Sequence record: MT782071.1
Length of the DNA stretch: 64,000 bases
Reading direction: 5' to 3' (one strand)
From: Escherichia phage JN02
Part shown: positions 1 through 13,152 of the stretch, piece after piece
How positions within the stretch are numbered: the stretch's first letter is position 1
Layout: each line of letters starts with the position of its first letter
Program-made: the position numbers and the translations under genes
Notes under the pieces: model-generated
Told to the model about the DNA's origin: nothing
Databases searched by the model: none
The model's input: only the letters and a program-made list of their open reading frames with translations

Positions 1-17
1 TATTGTTTTAATTTATG

Positions 18-332
18 TTATTCTTTAGGGAAGTTTTTAGAGTATGCATCATAAAGTTTATTACCAATACGGCGGAAGACTTTAGCTGCAAAACGGTTTT
101 CAGGGTTTTTAATCATGATTTGCATCATGTAAGTTCCTGCATCCGAAAGAGCTTCTTCATAGTACCCGTTAATTTCTTTAAGAGTCCTACGTTTACCACC
201 AGGACCATCAACAGTAATTTTCCATTTACCTGTAGAAGTGCGGCTCGGTGGCTCAACTTGTTCAATCCAAATATAACCACCTTCAACGCGTTGGTTGGCG
301 GATTCTGCAATAAATTCTTTATACGTTTTCAT
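18..332 (-). CDS. Internal (capsid-packaged) protein candidate, 104 aa, N-terminus MKTYKEFIAE
   Basis: ORF in track; N-terminal decapeptide matches the T4 capsid targeting sequence (MKTYQEFIAE) cleaved by gp21 after IAE; sits next to denV/e as the ip genes do in T4. Confidence 0.6.
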   Translation of the reverse strand: MKTYKEFIAESANQRVEGGYIWIEQVEPPSRTSTGKWKITVDGPGGKRRTLKEINGYYEEALSDAGTYMMQIMIKNPENRFAAKVFRRIGNKLYDAYSKNFPKE

Positions 333-362
333 TTTTGTTTCCTTGTTTGTTTTGATAGAGTA

Positions 363-392
363 ATTATACCATATTAATACTTAAGCGTAAAC
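363..392 (-). promoter_or_regulatory. Early sigma70-type promoter (-35 GTTTAC, -10 TATAAT on minus strand)
   Basis: Minus-strand reading GTTTAC-N18-TATAAT, about 30 nt upstream of the ATG at 332. Confidence 0.5.
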
Positions 393-395
393 AAT

Positions 396-656
396 TTAAG
401 CTTTACCGCCAGAAATAATTCCGAAGTTGTTAAAATCGTATCCAATATCGTCAACATCTACTTTAGGGCTTGCTACAACATAAGCAATTTCACTACGTTT
501 TGCATAGGTGTTGATTTCTTTACCATCGCCACCTAAGAAAAAATACCCATTACGTTTTAATGAGCCAAAGTCTTCCGCATCACCAATGAAAGCTTTAACT
601 TTAAATTTAGGACCTTTGGCATCTGCTTCAGCGATAAATTCTTGATACATTTTCAT
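396..656 (-). CDS. Internal protein candidate, 86 aa, N-terminus MKMYQEFIAE
   Basis: ORF in track; capsid-targeting-like N-terminus; 6 nt downstream of denV stop. Confidence 0.6.
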   Translation of the reverse strand: MKMYQEFIAEADAKGPKFKVKAFIGDAEDFGSLKRNGYFFLGGDGKEINTYAKRSEIAYVVASPKVDVDDIGYDFNNFGIISGGKA

Positions 657-662
657 TTTTCC

Positions 663-1076
663 TTAGTAAATTGATTTACCATAGTATTTGTACCAAGTAG
701 GACGTTGAGCAATTTTTTCATCTAAGCGAGCTTGACTTATCGCAATGGATGCTTCGGACGGGACATAATTATTACGAAATTCTGCAGGGATGTCGGAAAT
801 ATCCTGGACAGTCGTGTCCTTGATTTTGAAACCACGTTTCACGCATTCAGCGATTAGCTCGATTTGACGTAAACGTAAAAATTCGAGTTTGTCGTAAAAG
901 AATGTTACGTGACCTGTGCCTAAGATAAATGTTGGAGAGATTTTAAAATCCTTTACACGTTTACCGTTTTGAACATGTTTACGGACTGCACCAAATACGC
1001 GTGGTAATTCACGATACTCAGCCATAAGATGTTGGTCGGTCAGTTCAGAAACAAGTGTTAAATTGATACGAGTCAT
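663..1076 (-). CDS. denV: Endonuclease V (pyrimidine dimer DNA glycosylase/AP lyase)
   Basis: Translation from [12 protein letters not shown] is near-identical to T4 DenV as I recall it; 137 aa from that Met (ORF track begins 4 codons earlier at 1088). Confidence 0.93.
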
Positions 1077-1103
1077 AATTTCCTCCAAGTAGTTGATGAA
1101 TGT

Positions 1104-1133
1104 ATAGTATCAAAGTCCTTGGAGGAAGTAAAC
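1104..1133 (-). promoter_or_regulatory. Early promoter cassette (-35 GTTTAC, -10 TACTAT) with inverted repeat around the -10
   Basis: Minus-strand GTTTAC-N18-TACTAT; cctccaag / cttggagg inverted repeat flanks the -10. Confidence 0.5.
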
Positions 1134-1134
1134 A

Positions 1135-1416
1135 CTATTTTTCTGAAGCTCCTGAAATATATTTTTCAAGACGTTGTTTCATCAGCGAGCCGTTCTTAGC
1201 GATTTCTTCCGGTTTATCGCACATACGTAACAAGGCTTCAAGCTTAGCGATATCGCTGGTACGTTCAAATTTGCGAGTATCTATCTTACTAGCAAGTTCA
1301 GAAATACGTGCTAATAGACTTTCGGCTTCAACCAAAGCTGCACCTAGCTTAGTTGCAAATGTGTCAGTAGCTTCGTTAAGAATAGATTCTGATAAAAATT
1401 CACTATATGTTTTCAT
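1135..1416 (-). CDS. Internal protein candidate, 93 aa from [10 protein letters not shown]
   Basis: ORF track 1135..1431; internal Met gives a capsid-targeting-like N-terminus; overlaps start of e by 4 nt. Confidence 0.55.
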
Positions 1417-1901
1417 ATATACGCTTTCCAAGTTCCTGTTTTAAATGTTGAGATTACGCGTTTCGCGCGATTAGGTGTCTGACGATACCATTTAGATTGG
1501 GCTAGATTTACTGCCGCTTCATCCCAACGTTTCTGTTGAAGCATACGAAGAGAATTAGTAAAACCAGCGACGCCTGCTACACCCATTTGGAAGACCATAT
1601 TGACCAATGCACATCGACGAACAGCATCTAAAGAATCATATACCGGTTTAAGTTTAGCATTACCTAAGATTCCGCGAACGGCTTTATCAACGTCTTCATT
1701 AAATAGCTTTTCAGCCTCATCAAGGGTAATTGTACCGTTGCATTTACGGCCGATCATTCTGTCAAGTTCAGCTTTAGCTACGGCTAAAGACGGGTTCTTT
1801 GTTACTAAATGGCCTATGCCAATCGTCCAAAAGCCTTCAGTGTCTTTGTATAAAGTCAGTCTAAGACCTTCGTCATTACGAAGCATTTCAAATATATTCA
1901 T
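1413..1901 (-). CDS. e: Lysozyme (endolysin), T4 e-type, 162 aa
   Basis: [32 protein letters not shown]... closely matches T4 lysozyme; start taken at MNIF, 4 codons into the track ORF. Confidence 0.95.
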
Positions 1902-1935
1902 AATACCTCCCACGTTTATAGGAGGTATTTATTAC

Positions 1936-2394
1936 TTATAGGATGGTAGTGAGCACCTTATATAATGATTTGCCCATTACATATTCCCATTGAGAAGGTT
2001 TAATTAAAGCGAATGCATCAAATTCAGGAATCTGTCGTCCGTCTGGGAATGTATGATAGGAATTACAAACACTGTTTCTGAATTGCTCGTGCTCTACAGG
2101 GATGGTATATAGGAACAGATGAATATTCTTATTGTCTGAGTAATGATGTTCACCTAGGTCTTTCAGGAAGGCAGGGTCGTATTGTGTAAACCCAGTTTCT
2201 TCTTCGCATTCACGAATAGCGGCTTCGATAGGAGATTCACCAGGCTCGACACGACCTTTAGGAATATCCCACCGATGAGCTAAAGAACCTTTAGGACGAG
2301 AACCAGTTACACGCCCCATGAATAATTCTTTATCTTCGGTAAGGAAAATAATACCGGCTGATAGTTCTTTCACTTTATTTTTCTTACTCATCAT
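1936..2394 (-). CDS. nudE: Nudix hydrolase
   Basis: Nudix box GRVEPGESPIEAAIRECEEETG; about 152 aa; directly downstream of e as in T4 (e.1). Confidence 0.85.
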   Translation of the reverse strand: MMSKKNKVKELSAGIIFLTEDKELFMGRVTGSRPKGSLAHRWDIPKGRVEPGESPIEAAIRECEEETGFTQYDPAFLKDLGEHHYSDNKNIHLFLYTIPVEHEQFRNSVCNSYHTFPDGRQIPEFDAFALIKPSQWEYVMGKSLYKVLTTIL

Positions 2395-2635
2395 CTCGGT
2401 CCCATGATTTGGCCATTAATTCGGACATAAATTCTTCAATGCGCGTTTCTTTAGATGGACTTTCACTATTAGAGACCGCAAGTTTGTAATCTGCAATAGG
2501 ACAGAACATATCAAGGTCCATATTAAGGTCGTCTTTGATTTTTTCTTCTGACACATCTTTATCGTATGTGTACAGATAGCTATCACATGATTCTGATTTA
2601 ATGTAAATTGCTATACTCATCTCAAATTCCTGCAT
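2384..2635 (-). CDS. Hypothetical protein (83 aa; may start at internal Met at 2620)
   Basis: ORF in track; AGGA Shine-Dalgarno 7 nt upstream of the internal ATG. Confidence 0.45.
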   Translation of the reverse strand: MQEFEMSIAIYIKSESCDSYLYTYDKDVSEEKIKDDLNMDLDMFCPIADYKLAVSNSESPSKETRIEEFMSELMAKSWDRDDE

Positions 2636-3108
2636 TCGGTAATAAAACGTTCAACTTCATTATTCTTGGCTTTTATCTTGTCTTTACGTTCCTGTAAACT
2701 ACTTTTAACAAGATTAATAATGATGCCTATAGTACCTCCACCAATAATACCACCAACAACACTTATGATACTAGATGCTAATAAGATAGCAATAATATCA
2801 ACAAAACCGAAAGAACTCACCTTAGTACTGAAAAACCATACCGACGGTACAAATATAATCCATCCTGTTATCCATTGGCACTTATTGAAAAACTTTTCAA
2901 GCTCAGCTTGAGTTGTTCGTATTACTTCATCGATAGGTTGATATCCATTAATGTATCTGTTCACGATAATACCTGCTGGCTGGTCGATTTTAAATTCTTG
3001 ACAAATATGTTTCACTAAGTAGGATGGACATCCTGTCCAATCTACTGAATAGTATGAAATACCTTCATTGCCATCGTCTATATTAGACCAATATGTTTTG
3101 TTAATCAT
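2617..3108 (-). CDS. Hypothetical membrane protein, 163 aa, C-terminus ...ERFITECRNLR
   Basis: ORF in track; hydrophobic helices (FVPSVWFF..., IISVVGGIIGGGTIGIIINL); C-terminal F-I-x-E-C-R motif. Confidence 0.55.
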   Translation of the reverse strand: MINKTYWSNIDDGNEGISYYSVDWTGCPSYLVKHICQEFKIDQPAGIIVNRYINGYQPIDEVIRTTQAELEKFFNKCQWITGWIIFVPSVWFFSTKVSSFGFVDIIAILLASSIISVVGGIIGGGTIGIIINLVKSSLQERKDKIKAKNNEVERFITECRNLR

Positions 3109-3794
3109 TACCAGCCTTCCATAGGGAATTCCAGATAAACTTGAGCATTGACACGAATTTCATTGGTAATCTTTTTAACTCGGTCTGTATTACGAGATAC
3201 ACGTCCGAACCAACGCCATCCATTACTAATTGCACGAGAACCAGTGTGCCATGTTTGCCAATCAAACTGAAGAAGAGTACGGTCCGGAGCTTCCCATTTC
3301 TCTAGTTCACCTTTTTCAATTTTTTCTAGGACTTCTTTGTGCCACTGGCGATAGATAAGTTCGCCATCAGGAATCTGACTGAACTCTGCAGTTCCTGTTG
3401 CAAAATGAGTAGGACACACATCAGCGTTAACAAGACCAAGAATATGTTCAGACAAATAGCGAGGATTGTCATAATCAGGTTGTCCTGCAGTAATAAAGTG
3501 TTGACCAACTGGAATATCAGGGCGTGGTACGTCATCATGGTGATATCCAGGAATAGCAGGATACCAACCAGGCATCAGCATGTGGACTCGTGAATCAAAT
3601 ACAACCTGGTCAGTGTTCCAATCATCTGGCAAGTTCATGATGAAGCTACGAGTAATTGGGCCGCCATTATTAAAAGCAAAATTCAAATCGCAGTTAAAGA
3701 ACATAGGCTCGTTTTTAATCCGATCGTTTTTAATCGCATGAGCAAAACCACCTACTGCACGAGCTTGACTATTAAACACTTTAGAACTATTCAT
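3108..3794 (-). CDS. Hypothetical protein, 228 aa
   Basis: ORF in track, tightly packed in the minus-strand operon. Confidence 0.6.
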   Translation of the reverse strand: MNSSKVFNSQARAVGGFAHAIKNDRIKNEPMFFNCDLNFAFNNGGPITRSFIMNLPDDWNTDQVVFDSRVHMLMPGWYPAIPGYHHDDVPRPDIPVGQHFITAGQPDYDNPRYLSEHILGLVNADVCPTHFATGTAEFSQIPDGELIYRQWHKEVLEKIEKGELEKWEAPDRTLLQFDWQTWHTGSRAISNGWRWFGRVSRNTDRVKKITNEIRVNAQVYLEFPMEGW

Positions 3795-3795
3795 A

Positions 3796-4101
3796 TTATT
3801 TTCCTCGACATTCTTTAATGAAATTTTCTAGATTGGTAGATTCAATAGCTTTTTTACGAGCTTCCGCGTGTTCTTCTTCGGACAATTTACGTTTATAATT
3901 GACCCAGACATTATGGTCGAAACCAGTCGTGGCATATAATAACAATGCTCCAACGAATAGCAAAAACGGCGATAAGAATACAAAACCAGGAACACCATCC
4001 ATATCGTAAGCCTTTTGTAATACTGCAACAGAAAGGGTTGCGTAAAAAGGCGATGCAAGTATTGTTAAAAGACCGATTCGATTGGTTTCTGTTAATTTCA
4101 T
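3796..4101 (-). CDS. Hypothetical small membrane protein, 101 aa, C-terminus ...ENFIKECRGK
   Basis: ORF in track; two hydrophobic segments; shared C-terminal motif. Confidence 0.55.
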   Translation of the reverse strand: MKLTETNRIGLLTILASPFYATLSVAVLQKAYDMDGVPGFVFLSPFLLFVGALLLYATTGFDHNVWVNYKRKLSEEEHAEARKKAIESTNLENFIKECRGK

Positions 4102-4126
4102 AATATTCTCCTCAAGTTGATAGGAC

Positions 4127-4156
4127 TACTATAACATGGCCCTATCAGTTTGTACA
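4127..4156 (-). promoter_or_regulatory. Early promoter cassette (-35 GTACAA, -10 TATAGT) with flanking inverted repeat
   Basis: ttgataggactactataacat element between ORFs. Confidence 0.5.
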
Positions 4157-4157
4157 C

Positions 4158-4358
4158 TTATTTTGACATTTCTTCGATGTCACGACGATACCCATCACGA
4201 ACTTCACGAAGAGCTTCAAGGCCACACATAGGCTCGATACCAGTAATGTGAACTTGATTAATCTGATACTCTACATCTTCTAACTGAGCGAAAACATAAC
4301 GACGTTCTGCTGCACAACCAGGTTTAGCTTTACCGAAACGTTTATTCAAAGTAGTCAT
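4158..4358 (-). CDS. Hypothetical protein, about 66 aa
   Basis: ORF track 4158..4376; internal Met (MTTLNKRF) has GGAG Shine-Dalgarno 8 nt upstream. Confidence 0.45.
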   Translation of the reverse strand: MTTLNKRFGKAKPGCAAERRYVFAQLEDVEYQINQVHITGIEPMCGLEALREVRDGYRRDIEEMSK

Positions 4359-4396
4359 TTTTATATCTCCATTCACTCATTTGTTTTGATAGGTCT

Positions 4397-4426
4397 ATAG
4401 TATCAACAACTACAGACCTTGTAAAC
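4397..4426 (-). promoter_or_regulatory. Early promoter cassette (-35 GTTTAC, -10 TACTAT)
   Basis: Minus-strand GTTTAC-N18-TACTAT; ggtctatag / ctacagacc inverted repeat. Confidence 0.5.
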
Positions 4427-4438
4427 TGTTTTGTGAAA

Positions 4439-5395
4439 TTATTTGAAAGGTTTTACCATATGGAAATTTTGTTTGAAACGTTTTACGTAATCGTTGTGTC
4501 CTAAGCTTTGGTACATACTTACAACTTTGCTGTAGTTTTCCCAGGCGTATTCACGGAACCAACCGGAGGTGATGCTTGTGCAGACTTTTTCTAATGCCAT
4601 CATGAAACTGGCTTCAGGGTTAATTTCAAAGTTATTAGGAATCTGAGAACGTTCTAACGCTAGTACACATGATTCTTCGTATACACCGGCCAATTTGACC
4701 ATTTCTGGTAATGATTCGAACTTCTCGCGTGAGGTCATGACTTCAGAACCATCTTTCATATAAAATGTATACGCTGGACGGTCTGTTAGCGCAATGGCTT
4801 CATGAATAGTATCATGGTCATATGTATAGATGTCATCTTTAAAGAACGCACTTTTAGAAGTGTCAAGAACTGGGTGAGCATAGTTCAAGGTTTCTTTCTG
4901 GCGTTTCAGCATAATTTCAGTAAGTTCATCGTTCAGTGTAACACCTTTACCACGAAGATACTGAATATGGTTCATAGTCTTTAAAAAGAATGGATTATTT
5001 TTCTTGAAACGATGAGACATCTTAATTGCAAGACATATCTCAGGAGTTGCCCAATAAAACCCGTTCAAACGGTCTTTAGTCAAATTTTTCTTGGCGTATT
5101 TTAAAAGGTCATAAGAAGACGTGAAATCTTCAGGAGTGAGTTCACCTACTAATTCACGGACATTAGTGATTGCCGGAACAATATATGCTTCAAAATGAGT
5201 TTCGCGTCCATTATGGAAGCATTTGAAAACTTGGACATCAGGGTTATCTTGATGAACATATACACCCATCATTTGATTTTTGAATGCATTCCAAGAACCT
5301 TGGTCTGCAATAAAGTCCCAGTCACTATTTTTGATAGCGTTAGAATCAATAAGACCGTGATAGTGAAGTGCACGAGAACCAATAACTAACATCAT
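4439..5395 (-). CDS. Hypothetical protein, 318 aa, with possible nucleotidyltransferase-like N-terminal motif
   Basis: ORF in track; N-terminal VIGSRALHYHG...SDWDF resembles the G[SG]...DxD signature of Pol-beta-like nucleotidyltransferases (weak, by eye only). Confidence 0.55.
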   Translation of the reverse strand: MMLVIGSRALHYHGLIDSNAIKNSDWDFIADQGSWNAFKNQMMGVYVHQDNPDVQVFKCFHNGRETHFEAYIVPAITNVRELVGELTPEDFTSSYDLLKYAKKNLTKDRLNGFYWATPEICLAIKMSHRFKKNNPFFLKTMNHIQYLRGKGVTLNDELTEIMLKRQKETLNYAHPVLDTSKSAFFKDDIYTYDHDTIHEAIALTDRPAYTFYMKDGSEVMTSREKFESLPEMVKLAGVYEESCVLALERSQIPNNFEINPEASFMMALEKVCTSITSGWFREYAWENYSKVVSMYQSLGHNDYVKRFKQNFHMVKPFK

Positions 5396-5423
5396 AATAT
5401 TTTCCTCGGATTAATTCATTAAC

Positions 5424-5663
5424 TTAAATTTCACGACATGCGATATTATATTCATCCCAGAGGTCATCATGTGAAGCCTCTACCAATGGAACGATTGTAC
5501 CATTTATGTCTTCATTATAAGGGCAAATTGTGCAGTGTGCATCTTCAAATCGGATGCCTTTGTGTTCAGATTTTTTATAACGCATATCGAATATCTTTGC
5601 AAACTTTTCACGAGTAACGGTTTTAGCAACCACTTCGGTTCCAATACTTTCGTAATAAATCAT
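5424..5663 (-). CDS. Hypothetical protein, 79 aa
   Basis: ORF in track; GGAG Shine-Dalgarno; early promoter immediately upstream. Confidence 0.5.
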   Translation of the reverse strand: MIYYESIGTEVVAKTVTREKFAKIFDMRYKKSEHKGIRFEDAHCTICPYNEDINGTIVPLVEASHDDLWDEYNIACREI

Positions 5664-5691
5664 TGTGGACTCCGTTTAATTTGATAGGACT

Positions 5692-5721
5692 ACTATAACA
5701 TAGTCCTATCTTGTTGTAAAC
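5692..5721 (-). promoter_or_regulatory. Early promoter cassette (-35 GTTTAC, -10 TATAGT) with perfect 9-bp inverted repeat around the -10
   Basis: gataggact...tatagt...agtcctatc. Confidence 0.55.
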
Positions 5722-5725
5722 TGTT

Positions 5726-5923
5726 TTAGCAAGAATAACTAGATGATACCCAGCCTTGAACAGTGATACTATTGTTGGATAATGATATCGCGTTCTGGAG
5801 ATTCAGACCTGCGTTATCTTCAATCCATAATGTAACTTCTTCGCGTTCTTCTGTTGCAATTTGGAACAGGTTTTCCAGGGCAGCTACTGCCGTACGTACA
5901 GCACAATCTAATTCACGAGACAT
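5726..5923 (-). CDS. Hypothetical small protein, 65 aa, paralog family member (C-terminus GWVSSSYSC)
   Basis: ORF in track; shares C-terminal motif with the two upstream ORFs. Confidence 0.5.
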   Translation of the reverse strand: MSRELDCAVRTAVAALENLFQIATEEREEVTLWIEDNAGLNLQNAISLSNNSITVQGWVSSSYSC

Positions 5924-5932
5924 ATGATTTCC

Positions 5933-6205
5933 TTAGCAAGTGTGAGAAGATGCAATCCAACCACCAGTTTCGAGGCTCAGGTTGTAGTCGTATTGGTAAA
6001 CGTCGGCCCATTCAGCATAGCCGTTTTTTGTACAACGTTCAAGATCGGCTTTAAGCTGTCCGGGTGAATGATAAGTTCCACCCATACCATAAGCTGGATA
6101 CAAGTCGAATGTTGTGTTTTGTTTATCAGCGATTTCTTTGGCAGCCTCAATAGCTGCATAGATTTTTGCTACAGCTTCAGCCAGTTCGGTTTGTTCTTTA
6201 GACAT
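5933..6205 (-). CDS. Hypothetical small protein, 90 aa, paralog (C-terminus GGWIASSHTC)
   Basis: ORF in track. Confidence 0.55.
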   Translation of the reverse strand: MSKEQTELAEAVAKIYAAIEAAKEIADKQNTTFDLYPAYGMGGTYHSPGQLKADLERCTKNGYAEWADVYQYDYNLSLETGGWIASSHTC

Positions 6206-6214
6206 AATGATTCC

Positions 6215-6520
6215 TTAGCACAAAGCAGAAGACGAAACCCAAGCACCTTCAGTAATAACGTAACCATTACCTTCACGCTTAACATCGCCACCATTATTTT
6301 CAATTTCATTTTTCATCCACTGGGATACGATTTCACCCTTAGGATAATAAGTACGACCGCTACCATAATCACCTACAGAAAATGATACGGCATATTGGTC
6401 TGCGATCTTTGTTGCTTCTTCTTCGATACGTTCAGCTTGATTCAGAAGTTTATAAATTGCATCTGAAGCGGATTTGGCATCGTTAAACTCTGGTACTTTA
6501 ATTTCAATAATCTTACTCAT
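6215..6520 (-). CDS. Hypothetical small protein, 101 aa, paralog (C-terminus GAWVSSSALC)
   Basis: ORF in track; start overlaps upstream stop (ATGA). Confidence 0.55.
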   Translation of the reverse strand: MSKIIEIKVPEFNDAKSASDAIYKLLNQAERIEEEATKIADQYAVSFSVGDYGSGRTYYPKGEIVSQWMKNEIENNGGDVKREGNGYVITEGAWVSSSALC

Positions 6521-6876
6521 TTTCTACATTCCTTAATAAAGTTTTCGATTGTTTCATTTTCACGTTTAGCTAGAAGTTCATTATAACTAACCATTTGAGA
6601 AGCGTAAACCTTTTTATTTTTCTTGTTATGGTTTATAAAATCGTAGTAAAAATAGACTACAGTACAAAATGATGCGATGGATGCAAAGGCTTGGGTATAC
6701 CGTAAGTCCTGCCATTGGTCTGTGAATCCATCGGTGTTCCCTATAAATCCTAACACAACGCCGTCAATAAGAAATCCAACTAATCCAAAGGCAAATCCCA
6801 TGCCAATACTCATAATAAAAATTAGAATGTTCTCACCAAGAGAAGGCCGTACGGTTAAGAGTTGAGGCTTTTGCAT
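6517..6876 (-). CDS. Hypothetical membrane protein, 119 aa, C-terminus ...ENFIKECRK
   Basis: ORF in track; hydrophobic segments; shared C-terminal motif. Confidence 0.55.
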   Translation of the reverse strand: MQKPQLLTVRPSLGENILIFIMSIGMGFAFGLVGFLIDGVVLGFIGNTDGFTDQWQDLRYTQAFASIASFCTVVYFYYDFINHNKKNKKVYASQMVSYNELLAKRENETIENFIKECRK

Positions 6877-7250
6877 CTTATTTCCTTAACGAATTCCATA
6901 GCTTCTTCGTATTCATACTTTTTAACAGCTTCATTATACTGAGCTTGGGCTTTTGCGCACTGAACTTTCCATTCTCTTAATCGGGCTCTGTGATGACGTC
7001 CTTGGTACCAATATCCTACCCAATTAATAGGCATTAATAAAAACGGTACAATAAGTGGTGCGACGAACATTAATGAAAATGTTGCGTCAGACGATATAAC
7101 TTCACTAGAATCTAAAACAGCTCCTATAATCATAAAGATTAAAAATGCTAAAGCTAAAATAGGGCCAAATAGTACTTCGTTTGGGATTAATTTACGCTTG
7201 TATTCATATGCCCAGGGCTTACTTGGCATGTACAGGGTTGGCTTTGACAT
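6855..7250 (-). CDS. Hypothetical membrane protein, about 131 aa (start uncertain), C-terminus ...EFVKEIRCKSLNS
   Basis: ORF track 6855..7280; start probably an internal Met to avoid long overlap with the upstream gene. Confidence 0.45.
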   Translation of the reverse strand: MSKPTLYMPSKPWAYEYKRKLIPNEVLFGPILALAFLIFMIIGAVLDSSEVISSDATFSLMFVAPLIVPFLLMPINWVGYWYQGRHHRARLREWKVQCAKAQAQYNEAVKKYEYEEAMEFVKEIRCKSLNS

Positions 7251-7815
7251 ATTCTCTACATTCCATAATAAATTGCTCAAGGATTAAATTGTTAGTGAAA
7301 TTAGGACTAACAACCATAGTTTCATAAAGCGCATCAATAGCACTTAAAGCATCAACTCTTTTAAGCAAAGGCTTGCCTTCATACATAGTTTCAGAATCGA
7401 TGATTAACGTAAAGTAATATTTTTTATTATCGACTAGAACTTCTGTATCGATATAAAACATATTAGACCTCAGAAGCTTATCTCTAAAACCATAATAATC
7501 TTCAGAGCGTTCGCTGATATATTCCAATTCAGTGTTTAAACAACAAACAGACCACGTAGGAGCAACGAAATCAGTGAATCTAATATCATGGTCTGCAACT
7601 AGTTTAGCAATAGCTCCGATATCATGAATCATAATACCTGGGGCTAATAAAGATTTTCGGTTATTTGCATATTCAGTTGTCTCATAAGAAGACGACCAGT
7701 ACCATTTACGTCCAGTTGCAACATATCGTAATGAATCAACTAAAGACGTAGGTGGATTTACCTTATTTCGGAACTCTTCGAACATTGAGTCAATATCATT
7801 ATTTTGGTTTCGCAT
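7219..7815 (-). CDS. Hypothetical protein, about 198 aa, containing ...EQFIMECREY... near the C-terminus
   Basis: ORF track 7219..7836; Met at 7815 has GGAG Shine-Dalgarno 6 nt upstream. Confidence 0.5.
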   Translation of the reverse strand: MRNQNNDIDSMFEEFRNKVNPPTSLVDSLRYVATGRKWYWSSSYETTEYANNRKSLLAPGIMIHDIGAIAKLVADHDIRFTDFVAPTWSVCCLNTELEYISERSEDYYGFRDKLLRSNMFYIDTEVLVDNKKYYFTLIIDSETMYEGKPLLKRVDALSAIDALYETMVVSPNFTNNLILEQFIMECREYVKANPVHAK

Positions 7816-7832
7816 GTTAACTCCTTTATTAT

Positions 7833-7856
7833 CCAAAAGGAGGACCGGAGTCCTCC
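7833..7856 (-). terminator. Rho-independent terminator (stem ggaggac / gtcctcc, tetraloop, T-tract on minus strand)
   Basis: Hairpin followed by TTTTGG on minus strand, downstream of ORF 7865..8473. Confidence 0.5.
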
Positions 7857-7864
7857 GTATTATT

Positions 7865-8473
7865 TTATTTCAAAGAGTTAATATATTCTTGTACATCAGC
7901 AGAAGTGGTTTCGACACCAGCTGGAGTGCCATTGAACGTTTCAACACGAGTCAGAGTGTCTTCGATATCAACCTTAGTCAGTGCAGCGATTTCAATTACA
8001 TCATCAGCCGTAGAGATACCAAGGGCATTGGCTGCTCGAGTTTCACGAATGTATTCGAGTTTGATTGCCAGGTTCTGACGAGCATCATCAAGTTCAACCA
8101 CCTTACGAGCAATTTCAATTCGCATAGCAGCATACCCATCAGCTTTTGTATTAAGTTGTTCGGCAGTTCGACGATACAGAAGACCAAGCTTAGCATGCAT
8201 GGTAACATCTTGTCCTTCAGCCATGAGCTTACGAATTTCACGTTCCTTAGAAGCGGCTTGTTTGTTCTTTTCATTAACAAGTTCGCGAATACGTTTTTCT
8301 TCATTAATAGATTTAACAGAAGCCGTTTTTAGTTCTTTGATCTGGGTAATCAACTTATCTGCAGCTGCGTTATACTGTTCTTCGACAGTCAGATTTTTAG
8401 CCATAGCAGTACCCAGTTTAGTGCGGATGAATTCAACAAGTTTCTTCAGTGTGTTCATATTATTACCTTTCAA
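7865..8473 (-). CDS. Hypothetical coiled-coil protein, about 200 aa
   Basis: ORF in track; charged, heptad-like composition. Confidence 0.55.
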
Positions 8474-8499
8474 TTGGTGGTTTATTATCCAATGAGAGC

Positions 8500-8528
8500 A
8501 TTATACTCTACTCTCAAGAGTTTGTACA
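8500..8528 (-). promoter_or_regulatory. Early promoter (-35 TGTACA, -10 TATAAT)
   Basis: Minus-strand TGTACA-N17-TATAAT upstream of ORF 7865..8473. Confidence 0.45.
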
Positions 8529-8529
8529 C

Positions 8530-8778
8530 TTATTTGTACGAATTAATAATCTCTTCCATTTTATCCAGAACATGGATATCGATTATACGAGGAAGTGCCG
8601 AAAGATTAGAACCGTCGAAAGATTTAAGGTCTTCCAAAATAATATTTTCAATGGCCTTTAAAGCTTCCGCAGATTCTGATGCAGAATTAAATTCAGGAAT
8701 TTCTCCAAAAAGACGTAAGAATGAACCAAAGTATTCTACGGCGATTTCTTTAGCTTGTTCGATATCAGACTTAAACAT
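8530..8778 (-). CDS. Hypothetical protein, about 82 aa
   Basis: ORF track 8530..8811; Met at 8778 has GAGGA Shine-Dalgarno. Confidence 0.5.
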   Translation of the reverse strand: MFKSDIEQAKEIAVEYFGSFLRLFGEIPEFNSASESAEALKAIENIILEDLKSFDGSNLSALPRIIDIHVLDKMEEIINSYK

Positions 8779-8806
8779 TTTGTTTTCCTCATTTGTTGGT
8801 GGAGTA

Positions 8807-8835
8807 ATCATATCACCATCCTTGGCGTTTGTACA
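8807..8835 (-). promoter_or_regulatory. Early promoter (-35 TGTACA, -10 TATGAT)
   Basis: Shares the caccatccttgg...ttgtaca element with the cassette at 9305..9334. Confidence 0.4.
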
Positions 8836-9063
8836 TTATTTTTTAATCAAGTTGACATAAAATTCTGCATCTTCAGGGTGCATGCCTTCGCAGTATTCTT
8901 CAACCATGAACTTCTTAACGGCTTCATAAGGACCACTCAGATTAAGCTCAGTTGTCCAGAACTTGGAATCTTGGACTGAATCGATACGAACTTCAGGGTG
9001 ACGGTTGCGAATAACTTCTTCGGTGTATTCATAATCAACGACATCAATACTAACTTTAGCCAT
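8836..9063 (-). CDS. Hypothetical protein, 75 aa
   Basis: ORF in track; AGAGGA Shine-Dalgarno. Confidence 0.5.
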   Translation of the reverse strand: MAKVSIDVVDYEYTEEVIRNRHPEVRIDSVQDSKFWTTELNLSGPYEAVKKFMVEEYCEGMHPEDAEFYVNLIKK

Positions 9064-9091
9064 TTTGTTTTCCTCTTGATTTGATAGGACT

Positions 9092-9121
9092 ACTATAACA
9101 TAAACTTACTTAGATGTAAAT
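9092..9121 (-). promoter_or_regulatory. Early promoter cassette (-10 TATAGT)
   Basis: ttgataggactactataacat element. Confidence 0.45.
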
Positions 9122-9274
9122 TATTTCAACGTCACCTTTAGCTGCTTTATAACCTTCAGCCCAAGATACAACAGAGTTTTTATCTGAGGATTCAAATTCA
9201 GGCATTGGACTTTCACCAATATTCACACAGTATGTTTCTTCATTTTCATCGAACCAAATAATTAAAGTAGTCAT
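9110..9274 (-). CDS. Hypothetical small protein, about 54 aa (below ORF-track cutoff)
   Basis: Hand-translated ORF MTTLIIWFDENEETYCVNIGESPMPEF...; strong AGGAG Shine-Dalgarno; own promoter upstream. Confidence 0.4.
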   Translation of the reverse strand: MTTLIIWFDENEETYCVNIGESPMPEFESSDKNSVVSWAEGYKAAKGDVEIIYI

Positions 9275-9304
9275 TTTGTTTACTCCTCTGTAGTTGATAA
9301 GTCT

Positions 9305-9334
9305 ATAGTATCACCATCCTTGGTGCTTGTACAT
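9305..9334 (-). promoter_or_regulatory. Early promoter cassette (-35 TGTACA, -10 TACTAT)
   Basis: Near-identical to the element at 45570..45599. Confidence 0.45.
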
Positions 9335-9341
9335 CATTATT

Positions 9342-9647
9342 TTAATTTTTCCAACTTAACAACTTGTAGTGTCCTTCATTCATACGTGGTTTATCCCAAG
9401 AAATACTAATATATGATTCACTGTCAATAGAAGTCGCCGGGTTTTTCTCTACCGTAAGACCTTCACTTTCCAGCCATTCAATAGTATTTGCGCATAAATC
9501 TGAAGAACACCTAATCGGAAACCGGCAAGATTTTTCACCTTTAGCTGCAGTGTTATACATCTTTTCTAAAATACGCTTTTGCACGTTTTTAAAAATAGTT
9601 TCAGCAGATTCTTCAGATTTTTTATTCAGTTCAGTGTAAAGACTCAT
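9342..9647 (-). CDS. Hypothetical protein, 101 aa
   Basis: ORF in track. Confidence 0.55.
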   Translation of the reverse strand: MSLYTELNKKSEESAETIFKNVQKRILEKMYNTAAKGEKSCRFPIRCSSDLCANTIEWLESEGLTVEKNPATSIDSESYISISWDKPRMNEGHYKLLSWKN

Positions 9648-9675
9648 AATATTCTCCCCATGTTTTGATAGGTCT

Positions 9676-9704
9676 ATAGTAACACATCTAGGGAAGAAGT
9701 AAAC
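9676..9704 (-). promoter_or_regulatory. Early promoter (-35 GTTTAC, -10 TACTAT)
   Basis: Minus-strand GTTTAC-N17-TACTAT. Confidence 0.5.
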
Positions 9705-9735
9705 AACTTTTTCAGTAAGTTATAGACCCCCTAAA

Positions 9736-9751
9736 GGGACCCGAAGGTCCC
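9736..9751 (-). terminator. Terminator-like hairpin (gggacc-cgaa-ggtccc)
   Basis: Perfect 6-bp stem with tetraloop just downstream of ORF 9758..10384; weak T-tract. Confidence 0.35.
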
Positions 9752-9757
9752 CATTCT

Positions 9758-10384
9758 TTACTTACGAGTTTTTGCATACTGAGCAGCGTCAGCAGCCAAA
9801 CGACCTGCCTGACGAAGTTTTTCTTTAATCGCATCGTGAAGTGGTTGAGTATACTTCAAACCTTCGATAGTCAAATAAAGACGATAAAGGTCTGGGGTAT
9901 CAAGGTTGTTGATATGTTGGCCATTGCGAAGAATATTGAATTCACGAACGAGTGAAGATGTATCGGATTCAATATCGCGAACAAGCGAAGATAGTTGTTT
10001 ATATTTTTTTTCCAGGCTAGAAGTATCAAACTTAAGAGCAGGAGCTTTAGGAGTTGCTTTTACTTCAGGCTTAGGCTCAGGTTTTGCTATTGCTTTAGGG
10101 GCCGCAGGTTTAGGAATGGTAGGAGCAGGTTTTACTTTAGGCGAACCAGATTTAGCAGGAACACCACCACTAACAATATCTTTGAATGCTTTAGAAGCTC
10201 TGTAATATTCTTTTTGGCTCGAAGTGTCGATACCGTACATGGCTTGAACGTTTTTGAAAAACTCTGTACTAGTTTTTGTACCAGAAATAGCATCATAAGC
10301 AGCTCGCCATTTCTCTTTTGTCATACGTACACCGGCTTCGGTGATTACTTCCGTTTCGGCTAAAAATTCATTAAAAGTATACAT
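9758..10384 (-). CDS. Candidate capsid-targeted protein, 208 aa, N-terminus MYTFNEFLAE, with Pro/Ala/Lys-rich linker
   Basis: ORF in track; capsid-targeting-like N-terminus; low-complexity linker GSPKVKPAPTIPKPAAPKAIAKPEPKPEVKATPKAP between two domains. Confidence 0.6.
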   Translation of the reverse strand: MYTFNEFLAETEVITEAGVRMTKEKWRAAYDAISGTKTSTEFFKNVQAMYGIDTSSQKEYYRASKAFKDIVSGGVPAKSGSPKVKPAPTIPKPAAPKAIAKPEPKPEVKATPKAPALKFDTSSLEKKYKQLSSLVRDIESDTSSLVREFNILRNGQHINNLDTPDLYRLYLTIEGLKYTQPLHDAIKEKLRQAGRLAADAAQYAKTRK

Positions 10385-10428
10385 CGATGGTCCTTAGAAA
10401 GTAGGTTTATTGTTTACTATATTTATAC

Positions 10429-10458
10429 AAAAAAAAGCCCCAACCTTTCGGAAGGGGC
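10429..10458 (-). terminator. Rho-independent terminator (hairpin followed by T8 on minus strand)
   Basis: gcccc...ggggc stem with inner GAAA-type loop; plus-strand A8 at 10429-10436 is U8 on the minus transcript. Confidence 0.6.
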
Positions 10459-10507
10459 TTTATACCTTGTCGGGGTTTCCACCTACTAGGTAAGTGTTTG
10501 TACGAAA

Positions 10508-10600
10508 CGCCGGGATTTGAACCCGGTTATTAAGTAGTTGACGCTACTCAATATTTTTAAAAGGCCATATCTCGACCATATCCGAACGTTCCGTCAAAAA
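10508..10600 (-). ncRNA. tRNA-like structured RNA candidate (canonical T-arm and 7-bp acceptor stem, non-canonical body)
   Basis: Minus strand has CCGGG-TTCAAAT-CCCGG T-arm and acceptor pairing cggaacg / cgtttcg, but D and anticodon arms do not fold canonically; sits in a 300-bp ORF-free region. Confidence 0.3.
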
Positions 10601-10761
10601 CGCCACTCGGCTTACGGCAAAGATATTTCCTCGAATCGATAATTCGGTGCGCCGTTTCTGCTGTGATGTAAGGGGATATTAACAAAACATAAAGATTTAT
10701 TAAGACCAGTCCTTACTCAGGGAACATCAGTCCGACGACTTGCCGGTAGCGACCCGGCTTC

Positions 10762-11106
10762 TTATTTTGGCATATCATCAATTTGCTCTCGACGCCGACG
10801 CCATAGATTAATCGCTTCATAAACACATTCAGCATTTGGTATATGGCGACAATAGTACAGTGATTCACGTTTCTGGAACCGATGTTGCAATGGGATTTCG
10901 TTTAAAAGGTCTTTACGGTCAAAGTATTCAAAACTAGTTAACCCGGAACGGTTTTTAAGAAACTTCCAATGGCCGAATTCATTTTGGAAATAAACGTAAT
11001 CAGCGTGTTGATATAACGAATTAATCAACCGGTCGGAAATAACTGTATCCTGTTCGTTAAAATAAAACGTTAAATCATGAACTACTAGATAAATATTGCC
11101 TTTCAT
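10762..11106 (-). CDS. Hypothetical protein, 114 aa
   Basis: ORF track uses a TTG start at 11154 that would overlap tRNA-Arg; ATG at 11106 with GAGG Shine-Dalgarno is more plausible. Confidence 0.5.
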   Translation of the reverse strand: MKGNIYLVVHDLTFYFNEQDTVISDRLINSLYQHADYVYFQNEFGHWKFLKNRSGLTSFEYFDRKDLLNEIPLQHRFQKRESLYYCRHIPNAECVYEAINLWRRRREQIDDMPK

Positions 11107-11124
11107 ATTTTCCTCACTTAAAGT

Positions 11125-11201
<77 letters not shown>

Positions 11202-11207
11202 AATATA

Positions 11208-11281
11208 TGACCCAGACCAGATTCGAACTGGTAACCTTTCCCTTATGAGGGGACTGCTGCTAACCATTGAGCTACAGGGCC
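11208..11281 (-). tRNA. tRNA with CAT anticodon (Met, or lysidine-modified Ile2-type)
   Basis: T-arm accag-TTCGAAT-ctggt, anticodon loop CTCATAA, acceptor with one wobble and one mismatch, D-arm imperfect; 6 nt from tRNA-Arg (dimeric precursor arrangement). Confidence 0.6.
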
Positions 11282-11360
11282 TAAATAACTTTCTATTATG
11301 AAAGGCACTTTAGAGCACCTTTGGTAATAGAGGGTATGAATTAATAATAACACATAATTC

Positions 11361-11876
11361 TTAAAGCAAATCAATCATTTTAACAGTCGGCAAAACAATT
11401 TCTTCTTCAATATAAGCGAATTCAACACGTTCAACTACACGCAAGAAATCATAATCATAATATTCAGAAGCATGGCCAAGAATATCAATGAGACCTTCAG
11501 ATATCTTATTACCATTCACAAAGAATAAGTCAAATACGCGTTCTTCATCTTCTTCGGATTTATTACCAAGGTCGACTTCAATATCAAAGACCTTTTTAAT
11601 GAATTCTGGATAAAGCTGGTCTGAGAACAGTCCTTCAACCAAGTATTCATAGATTAAAAGCGAGCAATCGCTGAACAGTGTATTACCACAGTAACGTTCA
11701 GCTTTAGTGCTAGAATGACGACTCTTAAATTTCTTCAAGAGATATTTAAACTGTTGGAGCTCATGCTCTTCTACACCAAATAATGTTTTGGTTTTATAGT
11801 TGTCGCCGTCATTTTCCCAAGTAGTGACATCAATTACGTAGCCCTTAGGAATTGTACTGCCTAAACGAATATTCAT
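11361..11876 (-). CDS. Hypothetical protein, 171 aa
   Basis: ORF in track. Confidence 0.6.
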   Translation of the reverse strand: MNIRLGSTIPKGYVIDVTTWENDGDNYKTKTLFGVEEHELQQFKYLLKKFKSRHSSTKAERYCGNTLFSDCSLLIYEYLVEGLFSDQLYPEFIKKVFDIEVDLGNKSEEDEERVFDLFFVNGNKISEGLIDILGHASEYYDYDFLRVVERVEFAYIEEEIVLPTVKMIDLL

Positions 11877-11880
11877 TTAA

Positions 11881-12171
11881 TCACCATACCATATTAATGT
11901 AAGTATACTCAATACATTCAAGATTTAAAGGATTCTTGAAAATATCATATTCAAGAGGGCCTTTTTCTGTTTCAATAAAGAAATCAAAGTTAACTGTGTT
12001 AAATTTATCGTCTTCGCAGAGTAATTTAACCTGTGAAGACGAACGGTCGATGTAAACCTTTTCAACTTCAAAATATGTTAAAATGCCATAATCATCGACT
12101 AGTGCTTTAGCTGCACGTTGATCGCTTTCATATCCATTCTCGACAGATTTTACTTTAGCATAAAGAATCAT
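11881..12171 (-). CDS. Hypothetical protein, 96 aa
   Basis: ORF in track. Confidence 0.55.
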   Translation of the reverse strand: MILYAKVKSVENGYESDQRAAKALVDDYGILTYFEVEKVYIDRSSSQVKLLCEDDKFNTVNFDFFIETEKGPLEYDIFKNPLNLECIEYTYINMVW

Positions 12172-12530
12172 GAGTGTTCCACCACTTCAAAAGTATGTGC
12201 ACTTACAATCTGGTACCAGTCAAAATTTTCTTCAGCATTTTTGTAGATTTCACGAAGAGCTTCAACAGTTTTTCCTGTAGCAACAAGATCATCAATACCG
12301 CCAAGAGGATAACAGTCGTAACCAGCAAACAGAAGGAAATTAATAGTTTCTGTAGGTTCTGGATGCAGTGTACCATTGTCATCGACTACTTCAAAGAACA
12401 TATAACCAGGCGATTTAGATTTAATCCAAGCCCATGCTTGAGCCGCTGAATCAAATGGTTTGCGTATCAAACGACAATCAGGGTCTTTAGAAGGATTTGC
12501 TTCAAAATCCGCATATACGTGATATTTCAT
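12168..12530 (-). CDS. Hypothetical protein, about 120 aa
   Basis: ORF track 12168..12548; Met at 12530 (MKYHVYADF) has AAGGTGAG Shine-Dalgarno. Confidence 0.55.
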   Translation of the reverse strand: MKYHVYADFEANPSKDPDCRLIRKPFDSAAQAWAWIKSKSPGYMFFEVVDDNGTLHPEPTETINFLLFAGYDCYPLGGIDDLVATGKTVEALREIYKNAEENFDWYQIVSAHTFEVVEHS

Positions 12531-12531
12531 T

Positions 12532-12738
12532 TTACTCACCTTTTGCAATTTTATCCATAACGATAGCGATTAAGCCGATTAGAAATGCTACTACCAATGA
12601 GATAGAATTTTCTGTTGTTGTCAGTAGTCCACAAATGAATCCTACAAACATCGAAAAACTAAAAGCCATTGAAGCAATTACTACAGCAACATTACGAATC
12701 AGTTCAGCGCGTTTCATTTTATTTCTCCATTTACTCAT
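12532..12738 (-). CDS. Hypothetical small membrane protein, 68 aa
   Basis: ORF in track; two hydrophobic helices. Confidence 0.5.
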   Translation of the reverse strand: MSKWRNKMKRAELIRNVAVVIASMAFSFSMFVGFICGLLTTTENSISLVVAFLIGLIAIVMDKIAKGE

Positions 12739-12754
12739 TTGATTTGATAGGACT

Positions 12755-12784
12755 ACTATATCATAGTCCTATCAGCATGTAAAC
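12755..12784 (-). promoter_or_regulatory. Early promoter cassette (-35 GTTTAC, -10 TATAGT) with perfect inverted repeat
   Basis: gataggact...agtcctatc around the -10. Confidence 0.55.
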
Positions 12785-12787
12785 TAC

Positions 12788-13075
12788 TTACAGAAGAGTT
12801 TTTGCAATAATTTTAAGCTGAGCTACAGAAATATGCTTAGCTTTAAACAGTGCAGTCTCTTCAGCAGGAGAGATAACAATAGTAGCGCCATCTTTCTTAG
12901 CAGACCATCCATCCCCTAAGTAAACAGTACCTTTTACTTCTTCGCCGTCAACCAGACTAATCATTGGTTTACCCTCACGTCCTTTATTTGCTTTAATAAC
13001 TTCGGAAGTAAGGGTTGCTTCGGTCAGAGTAGAAACGTTAGCATCAGGTGATATAAATTCTTTATAGGTTTTCAT
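12788..13075 (-). CDS. Internal protein I-like capsid-targeted protein, 95 aa precursor
   Basis: N-terminus MKTYKEFI...; L-T-E at residues 17-19 would give a 76-aa mature protein; position next to 57B matches ipI in T4. Confidence 0.55.
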   Translation of the reverse strand: MKTYKEFISPDANVSTLTEATLTSEVIKANKGREGKPMISLVDGEEVKGTVYLGDGWSAKKDGATIVISPAEETALFKAKHISVAQLKIIAKTLL

Positions 13076-13109
13076 TTTATTTCCTTGAGGTCGTTTATTT
13101 GATAGGATG

Positions 13110-13139
13110 ATAGTAACACGCCATCATCCTTATGTAAAC
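13110..13139 (-). promoter_or_regulatory. Early promoter cassette (-35 GTTTAC, -10 TACTAT)
   Basis: aggatgat / atcatcct inverted repeat around the -10. Confidence 0.5.
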
Positions 13140-13152
13140 TGTTTTGTGAAAA

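Follow-up and report, generated by a model that had tools for sequence, protein, structure and literature searches.

Early promoter cassettes of an RB69-like Escherichia phage with inverted repeats that may fold as hairpins specific to read-through RNA

Introduction

The closest described counterparts of the elements considered here are the promoter-early stem-loop (PeSL) cassettes of T4-type phages, which combine a strong early promoter with a stem-loop and include subclasses with the stem lying between the -35 and -10 elements or overlapping the -10 (Arbiol et al. 2010, PMC2839356). The present work concerns a stretch of 64,000 nucleotides from Escherichia phage JN02 (MT782071.1; hereafter the window, with positions counted from its first letter) and, within it, the intergenic cassette at 5664–5725 and its relatives, in several of which an inverted repeat brackets the -10 hexamer of an apparent early promoter.

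Cassettes of the kind were subsequently described in T4/PST and KVP40/nt-1 as well (Comeau et al. 2014, PMC4122927). In RB49, the stem-loop of PeSL211/210 reduced the expression of a downstream lacZ gene as strongly as the rrnB T1 terminator (PMC2839356). The same paper presents the elements of the T-even internal-protein (IP) loci as PeSL analogs on T4 early promoters with weaker stems, i.e., as AT-rich, weak stem-loops of variable size beside IP genes, summarizing Repoila et al. 1994 (PMC2839356). A third relevant system is found in the T4 genes e, soc, 49, and I-TevI, where the 5' strand of an RNA hairpin contains the promoter (PMC3014915). Neither of the two PeSL papers mentions RB69-like phages, and their passages on the cassettes do not discuss covariation, a G.U bias, or a separate class in which the spacer pairs with the ribosome-binding site. 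A search of the literature on inverted repeats in T4 early promoters returned nothing beyond the PeSL papers; stem-loops ahead of ipIII, ipII, and denV were reportedly noted by Valerie and colleagues in NAR in 1986.

Results

The cassette set and its genomic setting

Between positions 4000 and 10000, the window is 96–97% identical to the RB69-like phages JS09, ST0, HX01, and SA79RD (genus Mosigvirus). Its first 16 kb form a block of small minus-strand early genes, with homologs, by comparison with RB69, of denV, e, e.2–e.8, frd.3, two tRNAs, ipI-type genes, 57B, and genes 1, 3, 2, and 4; plus-strand late structural genes lie beyond. The original prediction, made from the letters of the window, had recognized at least 14 minus-strand elements of shared layout, and all ten that it listed are present where it placed them. 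Its motif, (GTTTAC or GTACAA)-N16–18-TA(T/C)(A/T)(A/G)T, counted on both strands, has 14 matches on the minus strand and none on the plus, as against 0.41 ± 0.63 (maximum 2) in first-order Markov resamples. A second finder, which asks for a -35-like hexamer, 16–18 nt, TAnnnT, and then a Shine–Dalgarno sequence (SD) with a start codon, and which takes no account of what the spacer or the bases following the -10 contain, returned 14 sites, every one of them on the minus strand. Adding the site at 8500–8527 gives a total of 15 cassettes, all on the minus strand, which are named here by their -10 position (e.g., 5697 for the focal cassette and 1109 for the denV promoter).

In 14 of the 15, a stop codon precedes the -35 and an SD with ATG follows 20–45 nt downstream; 13 lie within 1–13.2 kb, beside open reading frames (ORFs) of 50–320 amino acids that are mostly "hypothetical" in the RB69 annotation. 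Common to them are A-rich sequence upstream, GTTTAC (or GTACAA/GTGTAC), in many cases a TG before the -10, a -10 of the form TA(C/T)(T/A)(A/G)T, and a conserved A(G/C)(T/A)CCTATCAA around the predicted start. This layout agrees with that of the predicted RB69 early promoters of Nolan 2006. As judged from their sequence, the cassettes are strong sigma-70-type early promoters of an RB69-like T4-type phage, filling gaps of about 60 nt between early genes.

Inverted repeats in excess of chance

The focal cassette, GTTTAC-aacaaGATAGGACTAtgt-TATAGT-AGTCCTATC, has an 18-nt spacer and a perfect 10-bp inverted repeat (11 bp with a G.U pair) enclosing an 8-nt loop that contains most of the -10. The minimum free energy of the corresponding RNA is -17.4 kcal/mol, versus -6.7 ± 2.2 for shuffled sequences (z = -4.9), with none of 200 shuffles as good. 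Its transcription start is predicted at the A of ATCAA from the spacing to the -10 and from Nolan 2006, whose RB69 logo has C at -3 and -2, consistent with this placement. In the RB69 and SA79RD orthologs of the cassette, an A-to-G change yields a G.U pair.

The original prediction described an inverted repeat in most cassettes; the repeats are real, but "most" was an overstatement, the proportion being about half. A -10-bracketing repeat of at least 6 Watson–Crick bp is present in 6 of the 15 (5697, 12760, 4133, 13115, 4402, and 8505), 61213 has 5 bp, and 368, 6585, 8812, 9097, 9310, 9681, and 45575 have no such repeat; 7 or 8 of the 15 carry some repeat involving the spacer. Three geometries can be distinguished. 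In the first, the 3' arm begins at the end of the -10 and the 5' arm ends 4 or 10 nt before it, these being two preferred registers. In the second, the SD region is the pairing partner of the spacer's 5' part, as in 1109 of the window (a 10-bp repeat with a 28-nt loop, -17.8 kcal/mol), in RB69 at 61339 (14 bp) and 7406 (13 bp), and in denV, regB, alc, and alt.-3 of T4. In the third, the repeat is entirely internal to the spacer (9310 and 61213). In every repeat-bearing cassette, the 5' arm lies within the -35/-10 spacer.

To gauge the excess of repeats, each spacer was compared with the sequence running from -8 to the start codon for the longest perfectly complementary match, and repeats of at least 8 bp were counted. 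Shuffled spacers and spacers re-paired among promoters served as controls, the second of which errs on the conservative side, the cassettes being related. Such a repeat is found in 4 of 13 promoters of the window, versus 0.06 with shuffled spacers (maximum 2 in 300 shuffles) and 1.03 with re-paired ones (maximum 3). The corresponding figures are 14 of 52 for the whole RB69 genome (0.37 shuffled, 1.87 re-paired), and 8 of 39 for T4 (0.24 shuffled, 0.42 re-paired), where the promoter set covers 149 of 169 kb, without 100–120 kb, and is slightly incomplete. Among T4-like contigs of IMG/VR, the repeat occurs in 27 of 207 distinct promoters, versus 2.1 shuffled. The T4 examples include P-ipI (TGATGAGGTA/TACCTCATCA), P-ipII (14 bp), the P-dmd region (10 bp), and a promoter at 57966 (14 bp). 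The chance-level frequency that would have told against the original prediction is thus not what is seen in any of the four sets, and a repeat between the spacer and downstream sequence is a trait general to the early promoters of T-even phages. RNAfold drew an outer helix at 5697, 13115, and 45575, in which the -35 hexamer pairs with downstream GTAAAC-like words; it was discarded, as it did not rise above shuffled downstream regions in the window, RB69, or T4.

Pairing retained through sequence change

The intergenic site between 57B and the IP gene, which is orthologous among relatives, holds at least seven different stems, including AGGATGAT/ATCATCCT in the window and TGATGAGGTA/TACCTCATCA, AGGTCTATAG/CTATAGACCT, GGTAGGACTA/TAGTCCTACC, ATAGGGT/ACCCTAT, and TAGTGT/ACACTA elsewhere. 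A wider collection scan, in which only GTTTAC, the -10 class, and TATCAA were fixed while the spacer and arms were left free, yielded 96 cassettes; in 19 of these, the 5 nt following the -10 have their exact reverse complement within the spacer (2.2 by permutation, maximum 8 in 1000), and ten distinct 5-mers are involved. In the six-member 8505 family, pairing in the 7-bp helix reaches 97.6%, as against 33–60% in slid registers, and 4 of 7 pairs show double changes. Likewise, when distinct promoters were taken solely by TATAGT and an 18-nt spacer, pairing across all 26 amounted to 77% in the focal register versus 26–53% in slid ones, with double changes in 9 of 11 pairs, which none of 500 shuffles reaches. 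At the focal site itself, a search of IMG/VR for orthologs of the downstream ORF found only two loci, so that covariation there rests on paralogs together with RB69 and SA79RD. Rfam covariance models run over 1–16500 at E ≤ 1 matched no cassette, just two tRNAs. Overall, the covariation indicates a selected structure.

The same data bear on the suggestion that a dimeric phage protein uses the palindrome as its operator, e.g., a factor shutting off early promoters. The symmetry is centered on the -10, and the shut-off of T4 early promoters, which is independent of AsiA, has been described as "not completely understood" (PMC3014915, PMC2988021). Yet an operator calls for a conserved half-site at fixed spacing, and the repeat-bearing promoters display at least 10 different arm sequences (among them GATAGGACT, AGGATGAT, AGGTCT, GAGAGC, GGGCT, GGGTA, GGTACAGG, and TGATGAGGTA) in two registers, with variable arm positions and loop lengths, and only about 40–50% of early promoters carry any repeat. 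As the arms co-vary, with pairing rather than a half-site conserved, a sequence-specific operator is excluded, and an operator role of this kind is extremely improbable.

Two further lines of evidence concern the molecule in which the pairing matters. First, among non-Watson–Crick positions in helix-bearing members, read on the sense strand, G.T outnumbers A.C by 15 to 3, these counts not being phylogenetically independent; runs of at least 12 bp in T4 rise from 2 to 9 when G.T is allowed and stay at 2 when A.C is allowed, and in the IMG/VR set, G.T extension exceeds its null while A.C extension does not. Second, the loops measure 8–17 nt in the -10-centered stems and 28 nt in the SD-type stem of the window, and loops of these sizes disfavor cruciform extrusion. 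Because of this bias and these loops, a sense-strand RNA hairpin can be favored with moderate confidence.

Both points weigh against an account purely at the level of DNA, in which a hairpin or cruciform, or the conserved cassette sequence as such, is a recombination hot spot through which small early genes are shuffled, with no role for RNA. Some features are in keeping with such recombination. The original prediction noted about 40 nt of identity between 9278–9320 and 45541–45583, a correct and slightly conservative figure, as 9268–9314 and 45533–45579 agree in all of 47 nt. The shared stretch begins 4 nt before the end of the spacer and takes in the -10, the 5' untranslated region, the SD, and ATGACTA; the -35 halves of 9310 and 45575 differ, so that an identical half-cassette stands at two unrelated loci with its junction inside the spacer. 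Similarly, in VR25 (IMG/VR 2706795401, ~560–600), the ortholog of ORF 5424–5663 lacks the upstream promoter cassette and retains, directly before its SD, the remnant GTCCTATC of the 3' arm (within tacGGTCCTATCtgaggag), which appears to be half of a cassette, left behind by a recombination or deletion event within the element. PeSL-flanked indels and mini-circles are described for RB49/phi1, T4/PST, and KVP40/nt-1 (PMC2839356, PMC4122927). However, homologous exchange needs only the conserved promoter sequence and would not maintain pairing through compensatory changes, and the G.T bias of the sense strand is not explained by a symmetric DNA structure; the stems kept by such changes point to functional structures rather than repeats left over from recombination. 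Hence, of the roles that the original prediction offered for the palindrome, the operator lacks support and a DNA structural element is unlikely, while a recombination site is compatible with the data; as the whole explanation of the repeats, recombination appears unlikely.

A non-adaptive origin would invoke template switching or quasi-palindrome correction in the course of T4-type replication and recombination, by which short inverted repeats arise and are homogenized in intergenic DNA free of constraint. Mutation templated by quasi-palindromes has classically been studied in T4; the perfect arms, as long as 14 bp and lying within very short intergenic regions, would be in keeping with such a process, as would the lack of the repeat from half of the cassettes. 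It does not account for the consistent location of the 5' arm in the spacer in two preferred registers, for the precision with which one class targets the SD, or for the stem kept at the same intergenic site in distant relatives though its sequence has been replaced. Moreover, templated correction would remove G.T and A.C mismatches alike, and only the former are tolerated. This origin is accordingly held to be very unlikely.

Computed accessibility of the ribosome site

The energy needed to open the SD and AUG was computed for read-through RNA, for the promoter's own transcript, and for read-through RNA with a shuffled spacer. At the focal cassette, the three values are nearly alike (3.8, 4.1, and 4.1 kcal/mol, respectively), whereas at 1109, which is of the spacer/SD type, they are 11.8, 3.0, and 6.2 kcal/mol. 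Elsewhere, read-through values of this type reach 21.3 in RB69, and in T4 they are 17.7 for regB, 18.4 for alc, and 12.0 for denV, with the set of regB, denV, alc, and alt.-3 at about 12–18 kcal/mol; by computation, then, the spacer/SD type masks the ribosome site by 10–20 kcal/mol. Such pairing is found at 1109 alone in the window and at ~20–25% of RB69 and T4 early promoters.

The possibility that the -10-centered hairpins also mask the SD was rejected, for their read-through opening energies are equal to or below those with shuffled spacers. Often these stems instead free the SD relative to a shuffled spacer (1.6 vs 5.0 kcal/mol at window 4133; 2.6 vs 8.2 at T4 20588), apparently because the 5' arm occupies a CCU-rich discriminator that would otherwise pair with the SD.

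Relation to transcription terminators

A stable stem-loop directly after a gene invites the reading that the cassette is a composite of promoter and strict terminator of the upstream gene, as the elements are named in the PeSL papers. The effect of the PeSL211/210 stem-loop on lacZ, equal to that of rrnB T1, agrees with this, as does the GenBank record of Mosigvirus SA79RD, which marks the orthologs of 5697, 4402, and 4133 as rho-independent on the strength of a WebGeSTer prediction. Against it, no U-tract follows any -10-centered stem in the window, a consensus terminator scan of the window gave no sense-strand match at any cassette while finding canonical terminators elsewhere (e.g., 7839–7856), the stems are richer in AT than the G/C stems of RB49, and a lacZ reporter cannot separate termination from RNA decay or effects on translation. 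An intrinsic terminator was thus rejected as a general reading: only the plus-strand copy of the focal hairpin scores, by virtue of its TTGTTGT, and this does not generalize. Strict termination remains in our estimate quite unlikely.

Several observations may be placed beside this. On the plus strand, i.e., antisense, the focal hairpin at 5683–5710 is followed by TTGTTGTAAA with its TTGTTGT, a T-run that the other cassettes lack, and it might stop antisense transcription. At 7839–7856, GGAGGACCGGAGTCCTCC forms a perfect G+C-rich hairpin with T-runs on both sides, between ORFs 7865–8473 and 7219–7836; it looks like a bidirectional intrinsic terminator, and canonical terminators thereby seem to coexist with the promoter hairpins. 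In SA79RD (OL960576), the promoter hairpins at 1593–1626, 2882–2920, and 3157–3193 are annotated "rho-independent terminator" (WebGeSTer), with the early promoters left unannotated; labeling of this kind is probably a systematic mis-annotation in T4-like genomes.

Cassettes and other features of the window

The cassettes are collected in Table 1.

Table 1. Early promoter cassettes of the window and the parts of the focal cassette
Feature	Position	Strand	Remarks
Focal early-promoter/stem-loop cassette (5697)	5664–5725	minus	between stop of ORF 5726–5923 and ATG (5661–5663) of ORF 5424–5663
Focal -35 hexamer GTTTAC	5716–5721	minus	
Focal -10 hexamer TATAGT	5692–5697	minus	in hairpin loop; last base belongs to stem
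Focal 5' arm GATAGGACTA	5701–5710	minus	within -35/-10 spacer, upstream of predicted start
Focal 3' arm TAGTCCTATC	5683–5692	minus	discriminator to about +3 (predicted)
12760	12745–12784	minus	focal stem type; arms TGATAGGACTA (12764–12774)/TAGTCCTATCA (12745–12755); -17.7 kcal/mol, z -4.4
4133	4118–4157	minus	imperfect focal-type stem; TGATAGGGC/GTCCTATCA, 7 Watson–Crick pairs + G.U; -13.6 kcal/mol
4402	4391–4426	minus	different stem; AGGTCT(GTAGT)/(ACTAT)AGACCT; 11-bp RNA hairpin, -16.4 kcal/mol, z -3.6
13115	13104–13139	minus	between gene 57B and internal-head-protein gene; AGGATGAT (13123–13130)/ATCATCCT (13104–13111)
8505	8493–8527	minus	"aaactct..agagTATAAT" family; stem TGAGAG(T)/(G)CTCTCA; compensatory changes in T4 and RB69 paralogs
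61213	61203–61237	minus	upstream of alt.-3 homolog; weak GGATG/CATCC; spacer-internal repeat CACATggATGTG; fold no better than shuffles
1109	1076–1133	minus	denV promoter, second geometry; spacer TTCCTCCAAG (1118–1127) pairs with SD region CTTGGAGGAA (1080–1089)
9310	9268–9332	minus	only spacer-internal repeat CACCaaggatGGTG (CACC-aaggat-GGTG)
45575	45533–45599	minus	early-type, between late genes 23 and 24; no -10-bracketing repeat
9097	9063–9121	minus	consensus 3' arm AGTCCTATCAA kept; no complementary 5' arm
368	363–392	minus	early promoter; no significant repeat
6585	6580–6609	minus	early-promoter-like site inside 3' end of ORF 6517–6876; no repeat
8812	8807–8834	minus	only spacer-internal CCAaggaTGG
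9681	9676–9704	minus	no perfect repeat; spacer ttcttccc weakly complementary to ggggagaa SD

Two smaller motifs recur among the cassettes. The spacer motif CC(A/AC)AAGGAT(G/GT)GG, a small spacer-internal repeat with an SD-like AAGGA in its loop, is seen at 9305–9332, 8807–8834, and 61208–61237 of the window, at 50981, 8909, and 52004 of RB69, and at 2434 and 50949 of T4. The motif aaATGAGTAAATGGAGAAATAAAATG of the 5' untranslated region, found at 12717–12745 and 4358–4385 of the window and at 76421, 54981, and 162676 of RB69, holds an upstream ATG a few codons ahead of the SD-preceded ATG; in 12760 the two are in frame, which leaves the true start codon ambiguous.

Beyond the cassettes, a family of ~38 nt, ATGAAAACNTATAAAGAATTTAT..., extends over the first codons of four small minus-strand ORFs (297–334, 621–658, 1381–1418, and 13040–13077), each copy standing after or near a cassette. 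It encodes MKTYKEF..., similar to the conserved N-terminal sequence that targets the internal head proteins of T-even phages to the capsid, and the four are probably IP-type genes. A tandem direct repeat of 2 x 288 nt with 80% identity occupies 49193–49768, inside the minus-strand ORF 48632–50050 of 472 amino acids; by its position relative to RB69 this is presumably a Hoc homolog, and the repeat presumably reflects duplicated Ig-like domains. The genes for tRNA-Arg(UCU) and tRNA-Met(CAU), at 11125–11201 and 11208–11281 on the minus strand, match the two tRNAs of RB69.

Discussion

On balance, we lean toward the view that the repeats of these PeSL-type cassettes act as RNA hairpins specific to read-through transcripts, which insulate adjacent early expression units from each other. 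The original prediction did not raise this possibility. As the 5' arm lies upstream of the predicted start, only RNA arriving from the upstream gene could fold the hairpin. The spacer, which is the part of the promoter least specifically read by RNA polymerase, would have evolved complementarity to downstream sequence in about half of the cassettes, its partner being the discriminator/+1 region in the focal type and the SD region in the second type. The promoter's own mRNA, beginning inside or after the 3' arm, would be free of the hairpin, whereas read-through RNA would fold a hairpin of 7–14 bp with the -10 in its loop, and the hairpin would thereby mark read-through transcripts and insulate neighboring early units. 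In the -10-centered type, it would most likely attenuate the upstream message or form a barrier at its 3' end, and might also keep the C-rich, anti-SD-like discriminator off the next ribosome site. In the spacer/SD type, it would block translation of the downstream gene from read-through RNA, such that expression of the gene would be limited to the time when its own early promoter is firing. Given that the RB49 PeSL stem-loop lowered lacZ as rrnB T1 did, it is plausible that read-through expression is attenuated or insulated to some degree.

A number of points weigh against this view. The +1 position on which it turns is a predicted one. The -10-centered stems have only 1–2 T in the 8 nt that follow, and this want of a U-tract, taken with the negative sense-strand scan, leaves classical intrinsic termination unsupported. 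Half of the cassettes, including the strong-looking 368, 9097, 9310, and 45575, have no repeat, which would make it dispensable for promoter function. The RB49 reporter result was obtained with G/C-rich stems, and those here are richer in AT. The SD-freeing effect is small (1–5 kcal/mol) and statistically modest, the lowest two ranks holding 11 of 52 RB69 promoters (~5 expected) and 6 of 39 T4 promoters (~4 expected). Lastly, RB69 taken alone shows little G.T/A.C asymmetry, and the mismatch counts are not phylogenetically independent.

A more far-reaching idea, which we regard as tentative and would not expect to hold, is that in T-even phages the spacer, being tolerant of sequence change, is a programmable 5' arm through which each early gene is given one of two opposite rules for transcripts arriving from upstream, amounting to a genome-wide code in which translation depends on the origin of the transcript. 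The rule "do not translate" may be set where the spacer pairs with the SD (denV, regB, alc, and alt.-3), and the rule "translate regardless" may be set where it ties up the anti-SD-like discriminator, as in the focal type. If true, such a code would add a large share of early genes to the four known late-gene cases, and would help to explain why many early proteins abruptly cease to be made despite persisting read-through RNA.

Comparison with known systems

The likening of these elements to PeSLs in the original prediction is supported. As in the described PeSLs, they are intergenic cassettes running from a stop codon to an SD/ATG, with AT-rich sequence upstream, a strong early promoter of the sigma-70 type, and a stem-loop that is often between the -35 and -10 or overlaps the latter; they too are present in many copies in hyperplastic early regions beside small ORFs, with cassette halves common to more than one locus. 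Thus, of the PeSL properties that a sequence can display, the promoter layout, the stem-loop at the promoter, the placement between stop codon and SD/ATG, and the many early-region copies are all found; the 47-nt half-cassette at two loci and the VR25 remnant may reflect shuffling. The window elements therefore appear to belong to a cassette type already described. They differ in that their stems are AT-richer and diverse in sequence (e.g., the GATAGGACT type), in contrast to the GGGG..CCCC of the PeSLs, and in that the figure legend for T4/PST places the stems just upstream of the promoter (PMC4122927). The elements of the T-even IP loci are likewise T4-type early promoters, and 13115 and 368 of the window flank IP-type genes; as summarized in PMC2839356, however, these were described for IP loci only, whereas in the window, RB69, and T4 the same design is found genome-wide among early promoters.

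With T4 e, soc, 49, and I-TevI, the cassettes share the principle that the 5' strand of the helix holds the promoter, so that transcripts from upstream would fold and promoter-proximal ones would not; in the denV cassette of the window and in ~20–25% of RB69 and T4 early promoters, the 3' strand is moreover the SD. The embedded promoter is early (sigma-70) here and late (gp55) there. Also, sequestration of the SD/AUG by the 3' strand is confined to 1109 in the window; the focal -10-centered stems leave out the SD/AUG, and their computed accessibility is not reduced. Intrinsic terminators resemble the cassettes in having a stable stem-loop directly after a gene, and the same hairpins are so annotated in one public record, but a U-tract, a high stem G+C content, and a positive sense-strand scan are all missing here. 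That these hairpins stand in GenBank as rho-independent terminators calls for caution in annotation.

Relative to the described systems, what is added is the evidence of covariation, together with a distinction between two designs whose computed effects on translation run in opposite directions. The RB69 lineage thus appears to carry the composite promoter/stem-loop cassettes that are thought to drive the expression and shuffling of T4-type accessory genes. Their stems probably act as RNA and are of at least two kinds that, by computation, affect the ribosome site of the next gene in opposite ways, which offers a handle on how tightly packed early genes may be insulated from one another.

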